32,000 bases of DNA, from positions 1,350,001 to 1,382,000 of the forward strand of contig NC_016070.1 in the NCBI RefSeq assembly GCF_000253055.1, written 5' to 3'. Both the position numbers and the translations under genes were made by a program. This DNA is from Thermoproteus tenax Kra 1 (GTDB taxonomy: Archaea > Thermoproteota > Thermoprotei > Thermoproteales > Thermoproteaceae). The notes under the pieces are model-generated. The model saw only the letters and a program-made list of their open reading frames with translations. It was not told the DNA's origin and made no database searches. Below, one piece after another: positions 5,296 to 31,178 of the stretch. Every line of letters starts with the position of its first letter. Positions within the stretch are counted from its first letter, which is position 1.

Positions 5296-6004
5296 GCCTT
5301 TTTACGTCATCTACATACTTCCTCCTGGCCTTTGCATAATCTACCTCTTCCTTATGCAGTTCGGCCAACTTGAAGCCCTCCTCACCGCCCATCTCCTCAA
5401 CAATTACACCGTTGGGCGATGTAACGGAGCTTCCTCCGTCCACCTCTCTCCCGTCTGGATATACTGCCCTCACGTTATTAACGAAGGCGACATACATATG
5501 GTTTTCGAACGCCCGGGCTACAGCTAAGGATCTCCACAGGGATACTCTGTCTCTCGTTATATTGGCTGGATTGAGAAGGAGGTTGACTCCCCTCGCAGAA
5601 TAAAAACGGGCTAGCTCGGGATATACGAGGTCAACGCAGATGAGAACCCCTACCTTTAGCCATCCGTGCTCAGTTATACATAGTTTGTCGCCCGCCGACA
5701 CTCTAAGCGATTCTCCCACTGCGTGGCTCGGGAATATCTTTTCACAAAAATCGGTCACAGTGCCGTTTTTTAAAACATAAGCCTTAGATTTAACTACATT
5801 ATTATTTTTCACATAAAAAGCGCCAGGCACCAATATCGGAAATTTGGGCATCCTCGAGAAGATCTCCGCCAACTCTTCTTCCGAGACAACTCTGGAGATC
5901 CAATTCTCGGGCAGAACCACGACGTCTGCGTTGATCGTCGATAAAATGTCGATGACCTTATCGGGCGAGGATCCTTTAGCTACTTGGACTATGGCTAAGA
6001 ACAT
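5270..6004 (-). CDS. Carbon-nitrogen hydrolase (nitrilase superfamily)
   Basis: The start MFLAIVQ is typical of the family. The E-K-C triad context is present (VVLPENW, CEKIFPSH, GVLICVDLVYPE). The start overlaps the end of the upstream GT2 gene by 29 nt. Confidence 0.78.
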   Translation of the reverse strand: MFLAIVQVAKGSSPDKVIDILSTINADVVVLPENWISRVVSEEELAEIFSRMPKFPILVPGAFYVKNNNVVKSKAYVLKNGTVTDFCEKIFPSHAVGESLRVSAGDKLCITEHGWLKVGVLICVDLVYPELARFYSARGVNLLLNPANITRDRVSLWRSLAVARAFENHMYVAFVNNVRAVYPDGREVDGGSSVTSPNGVIVEEMGGEEGFKLAELHKEEVDYAKARRKYVDDVKRLSYSSLRL

Positions 6005-7217
6005 TAGTCTGTTTTCTCTGAGTTCTGATCCATCCGTACTCTCTGCCCATAAGCCCCAACAAAGTGCCCGCCAAGTGGACGAAGGCGGTGGCGAACTCTA
6101 TAAATGGGGGCAGAATATGCGGTCTCACTGGCGTGTTGTGTTTGGCCTCTACATACAGATCTATGGTTAATCCAACAATTAATAAATAAAACATAAGTAT
6201 TAATTCATATATTGAGAAATATATACCAGTTATTACTTTATAGATAATGAAAATTACTATTGTTATATATAAAGCGCTTGTCGCAAACACTGTACCTTGG
6301 AAGATGAAGTCTATCTTTCTGCCGAGCGGCATATCGCTCTTCAGTACTTGTTTAAAATACCTAGTGAAAACCCTTATAGTTCCCGACGACCATCTTAGCT
6401 GTTGTTTAAAGAACGACTTGATGTTGCGCGGGGGTCGCCCCCAGGTATAGAAGCTCCATGTAGCCGCTATCGTGTATCCGTTGAGCCACATTCTGACCGA
6501 TAGATCTAGATCCTCTGTCACAGTGTCCTCAGAGAACCACAGCCTAGTTACCGGCTCCAATCTGGCTATCGCGGTGGAACCCGTGAAAATCGGCATCAGG
6601 TTGAGCTTGCTCCTGCCCACCAACATTGTGCCCGATATATCGTGTGAAAGCGATACCAATGCGTCAAGCGCGGACCCCAGATACAGATGCCTTTGAACGC
6701 CTTGGACCAGATCGGCGCCCAATCTCTTTATTGCAGATACGGCTCTAGCTATGAACCACGGATCGGGGGGCTCGTGATCGCTGTCTATGAACACCACATA
6801 GCGCGGATTCCTCAGAGGATTCAACGCGATGAGCGCCCTTATTGCGTCGTTCAGGGCGCCGCCCTTTAAGCCGTGGCGTCCATCTCTGACTAACAAGAGG
6901 AGTTTCTCGCCTGCGTATACCTTTATCCGCCTGGATGTCTTTAAATCGCCGACATATCTAAGCCCGTAGGTCTCGGCTATGCCGTTGTCAGCACAATCCT
7001 CAACGACGGCCACCTTGTAATTGTTGTACTTCTGGGCCAGCCATTTGGGCAGAGTCTCGCCGAGGTTTTCATCGTTGCAAGACGGAATAACTATATACAC
7101 ACCGTCTTCCCCGTCCTCAAGCGAGGACGTCTCCGTCTGTTCCGAAGAATAGATAGTTGTAATTAAGTGCCAGGTAGCAAAAATAGAGCCGACTGCCAAT
7201 AACACAAGGAAAATCAT
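5976..7217 (-). CDS. Integral-membrane processive family-2 glycosyltransferase (cellulose/chitin/PNAG-synthase-like)
   Basis: Contains IVIPSCNDE, FIDSDHEP (DxD) and QQLRWSSG (Q(Q/R)xRW), with an N-terminal TM segment and several C-terminal TM segments. Confidence 0.82.
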   Translation of the reverse strand: MIFLVLLAVGSIFATWHLITTIYSSEQTETSSLEDGEDGVYIVIPSCNDENLGETLPKWLAQKYNNYKVAVVEDCADNGIAETYGLRYVGDLKTSRRIKVYAGEKLLLLVRDGRHGLKGGALNDAIRALIALNPLRNPRYVVFIDSDHEPPDPWFIARAVSAIKRLGADLVQGVQRHLYLGSALDALVSLSHDISGTMLVGRSKLNLMPIFTGSTAIARLEPVTRLWFSEDTVTEDLDLSVRMWLNGYTIAATWSFYTWGRPPRNIKSFFKQQLRWSSGTIRVFTRYFKQVLKSDMPLGRKIDFIFQGTVFATSALYITIVIFIIYKVITGIYFSIYELILMFYLLIVGLTIDLYVEAKHNTPVRPHILPPFIEFATAFVHLAGTLLGLMGREYGWIRTQRKQTNVLSHSPSS

Positions 7218-7233: not shown

Positions 7234-7410
7234 TTATTTATGTAAGTTCTCGGCCAATACCTCGGCTATGTCTCTTATTTTCACTTGAACTTCCTTAGTG
7301 CGCGCGGCATCCGATAACATTGCGTTGCAGAATGGACAGAGAGTCACGATCGTGTTTGCGCCCGTCTTCACAAGTTGTTCAAGCCGTATGTGGCTTATCC
7401 TCTTCTCCTC
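7234..7410 (-). CDS. Detached C-terminal fragment (58 codons) of the HdrD-like gene, in a different frame from the main ORF
   Basis: Manual translation gives EEKRISHIRLEQLVKTGANTIVTLCPFCNAMLSDAARTKEVQVKIRDIAEVLAENLHK*. This is the expected end of a CCG-domain protein (IVTxCPxC). Confidence 0.7.
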   Translation of the reverse strand, partial: EEKRISHIRLEQLVKTGANTIVTLCPFCNAMLSDAARTKEVQVKIRDIAEVLAENLHK

Positions 7411-7448
7411 AAGGGCGAATTCGCGGCCGCTAAATTCAATTCGCCCTA
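7411..7448. other. Cloning-vector-like polylinker sequence (TOPO-TA type) embedded in the gene, probably an assembly artefact
   Basis: AAGGGCGAATTCGCGGCCGCTAAATTCAATTCGCCCTA contains EcoRI and NotI sites. From memory it matches the sequence 3' of the insert in pCR4-TOPO. The stop codon of the upstream ORF (7436-7438) lies inside it. Confidence 0.75.
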
Positions 7449-9169
7449 GTTCCGCAGCAGAATGTCTTATCGCCGCTGAGTTCGGGCTCCCGCAGTTGAC
7501 CTATTCTCACGACAATCCGTCTCTGTGGATCTACGACCTTATTATGTCTTGCTAAATAGCAGGGATCATGTATAGTCATTACATCGGAAGTCGATTTAAT
7601 TTTTATTGAATTTTCTTCTAAAAGTTTAGCTAAGAATTCACTGTGATGATATACTTCAATCTCTACGCCAAAACGTCTATATTCATTCTTAAATGTATTA
7701 TATCCATGAGGACATATAGTAATGATTTTTTTAACGTTATATTTTAAAAATATATTTTTGTTATTTAGGACTATTTCTTGGAATCTGCTCTCCTCGCCTA
7801 GCCTTCTGGCAGGGTCTCCACAACATGTCTCCTCATCGCCTAAGATGGCAATTTTATCAAGCATTTTAGCCTCCCTCAGAATCTCAATAAGGGATCTGAT
7901 TATCTGCTTTGCCCTATTGTCAAAGCTCCCCATACAGCCGACCCAAAGCAGATACTCAAACTCCGGGTTTTCCGCCACCGTCTTAACGCCAAGCTCCCTC
8001 AACCATTCGTGTCGCCCATAGTTGCTCTGCATGAGCGTGTTCCCGTACTGGCTCAGAGACATCAATAGATCGCTCTTCTTCTGGTCTATCTTGGAGCTAA
8101 ATACAAGGCTCCTCCTAAGGTCAACTATATAGTCGATATGCCTTATATACACAGGACATACGGCCATGCAGGCCCCGCATGTAGTGCACGCCCAGACCTC
8201 ATCCTCCGATAGGCCGACCTCAAAAATATTCTTGTCGCTCGGCGCCTCGGCTATTTTGTTAATTAACGCGCGAGGGCTCAGAGGACGGCCGGCCGCATAG
8301 GCAGGACAAAGGTCGTCGCACCTGCTACATCTGGTACAGGCGTCGGGCATGATCTTATGGACTATATCAAGGTCCGCCTTAGTGCCCACGCCTATTTTCA
8401 AATCGGTCTGGCCGCTCTCAAGAACTTTTTCCAAATCGAAGGGCGTTGTTAGCTCACCAGATGGTCTATCTATTGAAATATAGTTAATATATCCTATTAA
8501 CATATGTTTTAAAATTGATATTGGAATTATAGTTAATAAAGTAAAAGCTATAATAATATGAATAAAATAAGATATCTCATATACTATTAAGGGCGGCCTC
8601 GGCACTATGTAGGACAGCGGAGACCAGACCGTTGGTCCACCGAAGTAATACTCCACTCTGAACCTCTGAAGTATTATTCCAGTAATAGAAATGATAATAA
8701 ATCCAATTAATATTAAAATATATTGATTATATAAATTATTATATTTAGTCCTATTTCTAAATATACGATATATTCCTAGAACAGGACCTATTATTAGAGA
8801 TAAGGCGGCCACGTCCAGAAGAAATCTGAACGCCAAAAAGAGCGGACCGCCATATGTCAGTCCAGTATACTGGTAGAACGCAACTATTATAGTCGCAATG
8901 AGCGAGATCAAAAGTCCGATCACCGTTAGGGAATGAGCGATGCCGCCTAAGGTCTCGGTGGCAAAAAACCGTTGATGTAACAAAAATTCTTTTAAGAAAT
9001 AATATGTTCTTTTTTTGAAAATACTCTTAATAAAAAATTTTAATCCACCAAGTTCTCTGAAAACTTTATTTATGAAATACAATAGGAAAATAACAGATAG
9101 TGTAGCCATGGCGTATACAACGAACTTAGTGTAGGGAGGCATCGCAAGATATTCGATATAATACTCCAT
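7436..9169 (-). CDS. Membrane-anchored Fe-S oxidoreductase: an N-terminal NarI/HdrE-like polytopic domain fused to an HdrD/GlpC-like domain. Truncated at the vector-like insert.
   Basis: Two ferredoxin motifs (CTRCSRCDDLCP, CTTCGACMAVCP) and two CCG motifs (ETCCGDP, KTFCCG). About 240 aa of His-containing TM helices lie at the N-terminus. Confidence 0.82.
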   Translation of the reverse strand: MEYYIEYLAMPPYTKFVVYAMATLSVIFLLYFINKVFRELGGLKFFIKSIFKKRTYYFLKEFLLHQRFFATETLGGIAHSLTVIGLLISLIATIIVAFYQYTGLTYGGPLFLAFRFLLDVAALSLIIGPVLGIYRIFRNRTKYNNLYNQYILILIGFIIISITGIILQRFRVEYYFGGPTVWSPLSYIVPRPPLIVYEISYFIHIIIAFTLLTIIPISILKHMLIGYINYISIDRPSGELTTPFDLEKVLESGQTDLKIGVGTKADLDIVHKIMPDACTRCSRCDDLCPAYAAGRPLSPRALINKIAEAPSDKNIFEVGLSEDEVWACTTCGACMAVCPVYIRHIDYIVDLRRSLVFSSKIDQKKSDLLMSLSQYGNTLMQSNYGRHEWLRELGVKTVAENPEFEYLLWVGCMGSFDNRAKQIIRSLIEILREAKMLDKIAILGDEETCCGDPARRLGEESRFQEIVLNNKNIFLKYNVKKIITICPHGYNTFKNEYRRFGVEIEVYHHSEFLAKLLEENSIKIKSTSDVMTIHDPCYLARHNKVVDPQRRIVVRIGQLREPELSGDKTFCCGTRAN

Positions 9170-9283: not shown

Positions 9284-9931
9284 TTAGACATATTTTTTGC
9301 ATATAGATCTAAATGGACAGCTCCTGCATCTGCTCTCGTCTACTGGAGGCGGGCTCGCGCTCCTCACTATTTCTCTGATTTTGTCCAGTATCTCTAAAGC
9401 CCTTGAGTCTCTCTCTATTCTTTCTACTCTATTTCTATAGACCAAGTATCCGAAGTCTGCTCTTAAGAGCTCCATGTATATCTGCAGCTGCTTGACGTGC
9501 GAACTACGCGAGACGTAGCCGCTCTTTATTTCCACAGGTATTATTTTTCCGCCCCTCTTGAAAATCAAGTCTATCACGCCTACCATATCTCTCAACTCCA
9601 CCTTGTACTCAGACAACACATCCTCGACGCTTGACACAACTCTTTGGTATCTCTCATGGAGTAGGCGTCCCTTGACTAATGCCACCAGAGTCTTCCTGGT
9701 GAGAAGCTTCTTGCCAAGCTTGGCTTGGATCCACAGAAGCCTAGGGCAGTACTCGTAGTCGTTGATCATCGAGGGCGTTATCCTCTTGAAGTCGTATTCA
9801 ACGGCATAGATCGTTGGAGCCAGTTGGTACACCTTATCTGTCTTCTCAAGCTCTCTGAGCGCCTCGTCGAGACTTAGGTCTTCTAAGTCGTCGCAACGGA
9901 CAACCTTACAGAGGGGTGGAGGTATCAGCAC
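9284..9931 (-). CDS. cas4: Cas4-like / RecB-family PD-(D/E)xK exonuclease with a Cys cluster (stand-alone)
   Basis: Has an N-terminal YEYCPRLLW, a core VIDLIF...IIPVEIKSG and a C-terminal CRSCPFRSIC. The GTG start lies 21 nt after the GTPase stop. The N-terminus is longer than usual, so the start is uncertain. Confidence 0.7.
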   Translation of the reverse strand: MLIPPPLCKVVRCDDLEDLSLDEALRELEKTDKVYQLAPTIYAVEYDFKRITPSMINDYEYCPRLLWIQAKLGKKLLTRKTLVALVKGRLLHERYQRVVSSVEDVLSEYKVELRDMVGVIDLIFKRGGKIIPVEIKSGYVSRSSHVKQLQIYMELLRADFGYLVYRNRVERIERDSRALEILDKIREIVRSASPPPVDESRCRSCPFRSICKKYV

Positions 9932-24637: not shown

Positions 24638-24725
24638 GGGCCGGTAGTCTAGCGGAAGGACGCCCAGGCTGTGCCGCGTAGGCCTTGCGCGCGGGAGATC
24701 CCGGGTTCGAATCCCGGCCGGTCCA
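24638..24725 (+). tRNA. tRNA-Ala: tRNA-Ala(UGC) with a 16-nt intron at the non-canonical position 29/30
   Basis: Manual cloverleaf: acceptor stem GGGCCGG/CCGGUCC with G3:U70, T arm CCGGG-UUCGAAU-CCCGG. Removing 24666-24681 gives the anticodon arm CCCGC-CUUGCGC-GCGGG. Discriminator is A, and CCA is not encoded. Confidence 0.85.
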
Positions 24726-24773
24726 CCTCTTTATAGACATATATTTATCAGTGCTAAGAGGTGTGTGACCAGA

Positions 24774-31057: not shown

Positions 31058-31178
31058 CGGGCCCGGTGGGATTCGAACCCACGACCTACGGCTTTCCACG
31101 GGCGCCACGCGCCCTTAGGAGGCTCGGCGGACTTGGGCTGGGTCCACCGCCGCTCTATCCATGCTGAGCTACGGGCCC
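31058..31178 (-). tRNA. tRNA-Arg: tRNA-Arg(CCU) with two introns: 24 nt at about position 30/31 and 22 nt at the canonical 37/38
   Basis: Manual cloverleaf on the reverse complement: GGGCCCG-UA-GCUC-AGCAUGGAUA-GAGC-G...AGGUC-GUGGG-UUCGAAU-CCCAC-CGGGCCC-G. Removing 46 nt leaves the anticodon arm GCGGC-CUCCUAA-GCCGU. Both introns contain GC hairpins. CATTTAAAG lies about 25-30 nt upstream. Confidence 0.78.

Follow-up and report, generated by a model that had tools for sequence, protein, structure and literature searches.

The gene annotated as the iron-sulfur subunit D of heterodisulfide reductase 2 in the chromosome record of Thermoproteus tenax Kra 1 (FN869859; 1,841,542 bp) is broken by a short piece of cloning vector, located at positions 7411-7448, possibly up to 7450, of the window, by which we mean the whole stretch of 32,000 nt that was analysed. 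We hold with very high confidence that this piece is untrimmed shotgun-vector sequence, which was retained in the Phrap/Consed consensus at the join of two contigs lying approximately 33 nt apart. At this join 33 genuine bases are replaced by 40 that are foreign or ambiguous, and a TGA stop codon borne by the vector is introduced. The gene is intact in five close relatives, and the three of these that were read as DNA have the 33-nt segment; the 577-aa protein in the databases is therefore an artefact of truncation. In the organism itself the gene almost certainly encodes an intact 642-aa protein with a membrane part, a ferredoxin domain of the 2x[4Fe-4S] type and two CCG domains. The features concerned are the following.

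7411..7448, plus strand: exact 38 nt of the pCR4-TOPO / pCR4Blunt-TOPO polylinker, non-genomic
7449..7450, plus strand: two bases of ambiguous origin (GT on the plus strand, AC on the minus strand), delimited by comparison with relatives
7436..7438, minus strand: spurious TGA stop inside the vector stretch, which ends the deposited 577-aa protein
7451..9169, minus strand: genuine 5' part of the gene, 573 codons, M1 to G573, up to ...TFCCG
7234..7410, minus strand: genuine 3' part of the gene in a different frame, 58 codons and a stop, EEKRISHIRLEQLVKTGANTIVTLCPFCNAML...ENLHK
7410..7451, minus strand: site of the missing genomic segment, between GGA (7453-7451) and GAG (7410-7408)

The 38-nt stretch and its vector

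The plus strand at positions 7411-7448 reads AAGGGCGAATTCGCGGCCGCTAAATTCAATTCGCCCTA, letter for letter as the first-pass annotation had given it, and this 38-mer occurs in a single copy in the 32,000-nt window even when 3 mismatches are tolerated; at the same tolerance it was matched by none of 100 dinucleotide-preserving shuffles. Its layout is that of a polylinker, beginning with the AAGGG of a TOPO junction, continuing with EcoRI and NotI sites, and ending in TAAATTCAATTCGCCCTA, the 3' end of which represents the first 5 nt of the T7 promoter complement; the 38-mer is also partly palindromic (AAGGGCGAATT...AATTCGCCCT). The last genomic base is at 7410 and AAGGG starts at 7411, which creates a TOPO ligation junction (insert followed by AAGGG on the plus strand, CCCTT followed by insert on the minus strand), with 7410 being the first insert base after the vector CCCTT on the coding strand. 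A second AAGGGCGAATTC was not found in the window.

The same 38-mer is present, with 38 of 38 positions identical in each case, in two unrelated metagenome contigs, L002 (1697-1734) and L003 (2119-2156), and in both it is followed by TAGTGAGTCGTATTACAATTCACTGGCCGTCGTT, that is, by the complement of the T7 promoter and the M13 forward site. A BLAST comparison of the whole window with L002, a 4.75-kb vector contig, aligned positions 7410-7448 (39/39, 100 %, E = 5.7e-16) and returned no other match above 14 nt. L002 (JGI Ga0208551_10277) is a complete circular plasmid whose termini overlap by 127 nt and whose 4623-bp unit is composed of a 667-bp archaeal 16S rRNA insert and a 3956-bp backbone, the insert being flanked by GAATTCGCCCTT on one side and by AAGGGCGAATTC on the other, which is the same TOPO junction as in the window. 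From the 38-mer, the plasmid runs on via T7/M13F through lacZalpha into a CcdB ORF (PF01845, E = 3e-32), and the backbone further carries a Tn5-type aminoglycoside phosphotransferase / neo ORF (PF01636, E = 1e-39), bla and a pUC origin, with the PmeI/PstI/SpeI/T3/M13R arm lying across the insert from the 38-mer side. The size of this backbone and the order of its elements are those of pCR4-TOPO, for which 3956 bp is listed. In addition, a construct made with the Zero Blunt TOPO PCR Cloning Kit for Sequencing has been printed with its end, ...AAGGGCGAATTCGCGGCCGC (10.1101/2021.10.28.465024), and the first 20 nt of the 38-mer are the bases printed there after the insert. The identification as pCR4-TOPO is thus supported by two metagenome contigs, two papers and the pCR4 map, and the initial attribution of the 38-mer to the sequence immediately 3' of the insert in this vector is borne out. 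Among 185,579 representative prokaryotic genomes, a set that does not include T. tenax and its close relatives, the 38-mer has no match, and neither do 30 nt of the left genomic flank. A megablast search of PLSDB with the 38-mer also gave no match, which is uninformative because PLSDB collects natural plasmids.

Compared with pCR4-TOPO and pCR4Blunt-TOPO, the window is identical over 38 nt of the T7 / M13-forward side, from AAGGG through EcoRI, NotI and TAAATTCAATTCGCCCTA, but it holds these 38 nt only (possibly 40 of a 42-nt stretch, if TA dropped out), with genomic sequence in place of the T7 promoter core and of all the vector that follows the core. The TA and Blunt versions of the vector are the same over the 38-nt stretch and are indistinguishable there. 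It can be noted separately that cloning vector is to be found in public metagenome assemblies: L002 represents an entire circular clone of an archaeal 16S rRNA fragment in pCR4-TOPO, and L003 (ENA OOOV01000263), from a human oral metagenome, has the terminal polylinker and T7/M13F at 2119-2190, with a bla-promoter-like stretch preceding the polylinker.

The right-hand boundary of the foreign stretch is ambiguous by 2-3 nt. Of the replaced bases, 38 are certain vector and two, 7449-7450, are ambiguous, with GGAGCTGGC of the relatives corresponding to GGAACTAGG of the window at this junction. Past 7448 the vector match does not continue ungapped, and it reaches 7450 only if a TA drop-out is assumed. 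Two readings are equally parsimonious, namely that the two bases are more vector, ACTA[TA]GGG, from which 2 nt dropped out where a read began, or that they belong to a genomic Ala codon GCT miscalled as ACT (G-to-A).

The interrupted gene and its intact relatives

The minus-strand ORF 9169..7436 encodes 577 aa ending in ...LSGDKTFCCGTRAN (...DKTFCCGTRAN) and is exactly the protein deposited as CCC82172.1 / WP_014127426.1 / UniProt G4RKS7, "heterodisulfide reductase 2 iron-sulfur subunit D". The residues (T)RAN at its end derive from bases of the vector or the junction. Exact-sequence look-ups assign five proteins of the window to T. tenax Kra 1. The reading of the ORF agrees with the first-pass annotation, in which the protein ran to ...DKTFCCGT and then met a TGA at 7436-7438, and in which the C-terminus resumed at 7410 in another frame; from 7410 the minus strand indeed reads, in a frame other than that of the long ORF, EEKRISHIRLEQLVKTGANTIVTLCPFCNAMLSDAARTKEVQVKIRDIAEVLAENLHK followed by a stop, and these 58 codons of the 3' part lie outside the deposited product. 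Deletion of the 38 nt does not restore the frame, as had also been claimed, because 7450-7449-7410 then becomes one codon; removal of 40 nt (7411-7450) joins GGA to GAG in frame. An 85-aa ORF on the plus strand (7298-7555), antisense to the gene, also crosses the vector stretch; it is mechanical and unsupported.

The 5' part of the gene encodes a hydrophobic N-terminal region of approximately 250 aa, a 2x[4Fe-4S] ferredoxin domain, the first CCG domain and the first half of the second. In the deposited form, Pfam detects Fer4 and one CCG stretch (E = 1.5e-13). When the gene is patched with the 33 nt described below, it becomes a 1929-nt ORF of 642 aa with no internal stop, in which two CCG stretches are detected, the second at 532-616 (E = 2.3e-24); the relative P0001 also has two. 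The repaired gene thus shares with the HdrD / HdrDE-, DsrK- and GlpC-type proteins (PF02754) a 2x[4Fe-4S] ferredoxin domain followed by two CCG domains, and it resembles the fused, membrane-anchored HdrED-like proteins in its hydrophobic N-terminal part, the NarI-type family PF02665 being matched in this part of some distant homologues. In contrast to the HdrD family, the deposited product is without half of the second CCG domain, and the artefact is the only cause of this difference. T. tenax is a non-methanogen, and the annotation as heterodisulfide reductase 2 subunit D is therefore a family label only.

A protein search with the N-terminal part recovered a 642-aa protein of 99 % identity, along with homologues of approximately 640 aa across the Thermoproteales and beyond. 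In the 90 % cluster to which the deposited protein belongs there are five 642-aa members, each from a different Logan assembly. All five are intact and approximately 99 % identical to the deposited protein, and all read ...TFCCGAGGANYWYDVKEEKRISHIRLEQL... across the missing segment. Three of these relatives were read as DNA, SRR28178317 (L001), SRR28178319 (L004) and SRR31758307 (L005), and all three have at this place the 33 nt GCTGGCGGGGCCAACTACTGGTATGACGTTAAG, that is, the 11 codons of AGGANYWYDVK, flanked by ...TGCTGCGGA and GAGGAGAAGAGG.... The same block on the coding strand of the window consists of the 40 nt ACTAGGGCGAATTGAATTTAGCGGCCGCGAATTCGCCCTT (7411-7450), as compared with 33 nt in the relatives, and the net gain of 7 nt therefore results in a frameshift (+1). 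The loss had originally been put at about 8-12 residues after the CCG motif and at a few tens of genomic bases; the comparison with relatives and homologues narrows these to exactly 11 codons and to 33 nt, replaced by 40 nt.

Outside this block the window and its relatives differ little. Collinearity with the window extends over 19.2 kb in L004 and over 9.2 kb in L005, at 99.2 % identity, and the only structural differences are the block 7411-7450 and three 1-nt intergenic indels (~1598-1709). These indels, at approximately 1598, at 1696 and at 1706-1709, distinguish Kra 1 from L004/L005 in homopolymer-like runs of the ~390-bp intergenic region that separates the AdoMet decarboxylase and threonyl-tRNA synthetase genes, and they could be either real strain differences or Sanger base-calling errors.

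The missing peptide follows directly on the CCG motif, in the middle of the second CCG domain, and the segment is nearly invariant (CCG[AG]GG[AGS]NYWY[DE]V) in 31 homologues down to approximately 42 % identity, with CCG(A/G)GG found in all 31 of the aligned sequences and the Thr of the deposited protein in none. The two halves of the gene are both open, the N-terminal one differing from the relatives by 3-6 aa and the C-terminal one by 0-1 aa; signs of decay, such as further stops or frameshifts, were found in neither, and no disruption was found in any of the five ~99 % relatives. Taken with the three relatives verified at the DNA level and the 642-aa product of the patched gene, this sustains the earlier proposal that the gene disruption is artefactual.

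It has to be noted that the relatives are not the sequenced strain itself. Residue 36 is Ile in all five relatives and Val in Kra 1 (in the region of window position 9064), and window position 7463 is A in Kra 1 and G in the DNA-read relatives (synonymous, ACA/ACG), which means that none of the five assemblies is Kra 1; they appear to represent a closely related environmental population. A resequencing of Kra 1, sought among the Logan assemblies via an identical inositol-3-phosphate synthase, was not found, the search yielding only contig L005, of a ~99.2 % relative. A look-up of contigs that encode the 577-aa ORF had no entry for it.

Origin of the stretch and rival explanations

The way in which the Kra 1 genome was made bears directly on the origin of the 38-mer. 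The shotgun libraries were cloned in Invitrogen "TOPO subcloning vectors", for which only this generic name is given, both ends of the clones were sequenced on ABI 377/3700 instruments, the reads were assembled with Phred/Phrap/Consed at 8-fold coverage, and gaps were filled in by primer walking, with bridging clones as templates, or by sequencing chromosomal DNA directly (Siebers et al. 2011, PMC3189178). The Invitrogen TOPO Shotgun Subcloning Kit comes with pCR4Blunt-TOPO (PMC3128862), and the 38-mer belongs to the type of vector with which the Kra 1 genome was cloned. Of the proposal in the first-pass annotation that the sequence is untrimmed vector at a "gap-closure or assembly junction", the untrimmed vector and the assembly join stand, and the gap-closure clone falls away, as the vector was already in use for the primary shotgun library and a PCR clone made for gap closure need not be assumed. 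The HdrD-like gene is not discussed in the genome paper (PMC3189178), and a literature search found no earlier report of vector contamination in T. tenax.

In the model that we favour, the insert of a shotgun clone would have ended at window position 7410, and a read from the M13-forward side of this clone would have delivered, as its first legible bases, the vector leader TAGGGCGAATTGAATTTAGCGGCCGCGAATTCGCCCTT and then the insert, GAGGAGAAGAGG..., which corresponds on the coding strand to the order of vector (...GAATTCGCCCTT) followed by insert (GAGGAGAAGAGG...). Left unclipped, the leader would have been taken as consensus at the end of the contig whose first genomic base is 7410, following which it would have been abutted, either by Phrap or by a human finisher, to the neighbouring contig ending in ...TTCTGCTGCGGA (...TGCTGCGGA), the join thereby concealing 33 nt that no read covered. 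When the retained stretch is located in the vector (L002), its far end lies within the T7 primer itself, 22 nt past the 3' end of the M13(-20) primer and 41 nt past that of M13(-40). A distance of 22 nt from M13(-20) would be approximately where a dye-terminator Sanger read turns legible. Under this artefact model the 38 nt are presumably absent from the Kra 1 chromosome, and the true coding strand is expected to read ...TTCTGCTGCGGAGCTGGCGGGGCCAACTACTGGTATGACGTTAAGGAGGAGAAGAGG..., which is 7 bp shorter than the record. A variant in which the reads were masked with the wrong vector file (pCR2.1/pCRII), leaving the pCR4-specific part behind, was considered and rejected, as the retained stretch includes AATTCGCCCTA, which is presumably common to pCR2.1/pCRII and pCR4.

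An alternative placing the fault in the cloning step, rather than in the assembly, is that a chimeric or rearranged E. coli clone carried the vector piece physically between two genomic fragments and was faithfully sequenced. The start of the piece at a TOPO junction and the TOPO cloning of the Kra 1 libraries would both be accounted for in this way. However, the two genomic flanks are co-oriented and only 33 nt apart in the relatives, a near-impossible arrangement for independently sheared fragments, and the far end of the piece coincides with no cloning site, its position 22 nt downstream of M13(-20) fitting the start of a read instead. We consider such a chimera highly improbable; were it true, the artefact would stem from an aberrant TOPO ligation or from recombination, and the outcome in the databases would be unchanged.

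Even less credible is the possibility that the Kra 1 culture used for sequencing truly carries the 38 nt in its chromosome, with the gene being a strain-specific insertion-deletion pseudogene and a synthetic polylinker fragment residing within an archaeal chromosome. Kra 1 does differ from all of its relatives at a few other positions, but this explanation would require an anaerobic hyperthermophile to have acquired a 38/38 match to a synthetic E. coli polylinker, ending at a junction that is formed in vitro and derived from the same type of vector that was used to clone its genome. It would further require that the insertion replaced a segment which is nearly invariant in the family, in a gene whose halves are otherwise undecayed, 99 % identical to the relatives and free of further stops or frameshifts. 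The idea that a natural archaeal sequence merely mimics the polylinker by chance can draw on nothing but the partial palindromic character of the 38-mer, and it is to be regarded as practically negligible in view of the complete match (38/38, or 39/39 by BLAST, E = 5.7e-16), the failure of all 100 shuffles to reproduce it even at 3 mismatches, and its absence from the DNA-read close relatives, in which the conserved domain that it breaks out of frame is whole.

Neighbouring genes and consequences for the record

Several features of the surrounding window can be noted in their own right. A stand-alone cas4 gene (PF01930, E = 5.5e-17) lies on the minus strand at 9284-9931, where it immediately precedes the HdrD-like gene and separates it from a gene for a GTP-binding protein, and this arrangement is kept in L001 and L004; no CRISPR array or other cas genes were seen beside it. 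The family-2 glycosyltransferase at 5976-7217 (minus strand) is annotated with 374 aa in INSDC (CCC82171.1) as compared with 413 aa in RefSeq (WP_167828107.1), and the gene calls of the relatives have 413 aa. Two tRNA genes are overlong, one of 88-90 nt at 24638-24727 (plus strand) and one of 121 nt at 31058-31178 (minus strand), and are therefore presumably intron-bearing. They score 46.5 and 49.1 bits, respectively, with the Rfam tRNA model, while ARAGORN labels the former tRNA-???, giving it a 4-base anticodon, and does not detect the latter; many intron-bearing tRNAs are reported for T. tenax (PMC3189178), which fits these two genes.

The Kra 1 case is an ordinary but instructive instance of internal vector contamination in a "complete" genome of the Sanger era. 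It belongs with the class of vector and adaptor contamination addressed by VecScreen, UniVec and NCBI FCS-adaptor, with a short internal piece of vector standing in a "complete" record, and it shares with that class the false frameshift and the truncated protein carried on to RefSeq and UniProt; it differs in that the contamination is internal, away from a contig end, and in that it also hides a 33-nt deletion. Excision of the vector match alone does not repair the record, because genomic bases are missing as well. The entries to be corrected are FN869859, WP_014127426.1 and G4RKS7. More realistic than a polylinker fragment in the chromosome is that the same trimming failure occurred elsewhere in FN869859, in which case further "truncated" or "split" T. 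tenax genes in the literature and databases would be artefacts too, and the case suggests a vector screen of the rest of this record.

The value of the finding is one of curation; it is a database artefact and holds no new biology. The genome of Kra 1 is the type-strain reference for the order Thermoproteales, and it contains 38-40 vector bases and lacks 33 real ones, while INSDC (CCC82172.1), RefSeq (WP_014127426.1) and UniProt (G4RKS7) spread a vector-ended 577-aa protein from which half of the second CCG domain is missing. Phylogenies, structure predictions and the choice of cluster representatives can be misled by this protein, as can any inference that T. tenax has lost a membrane Fe-S oxidoreductase; apart from the artefact, the HdrD-like gene is an ordinary member of the widespread HdrD/DsrK/GlpC-like CCG-domain family with a fused membrane domain.
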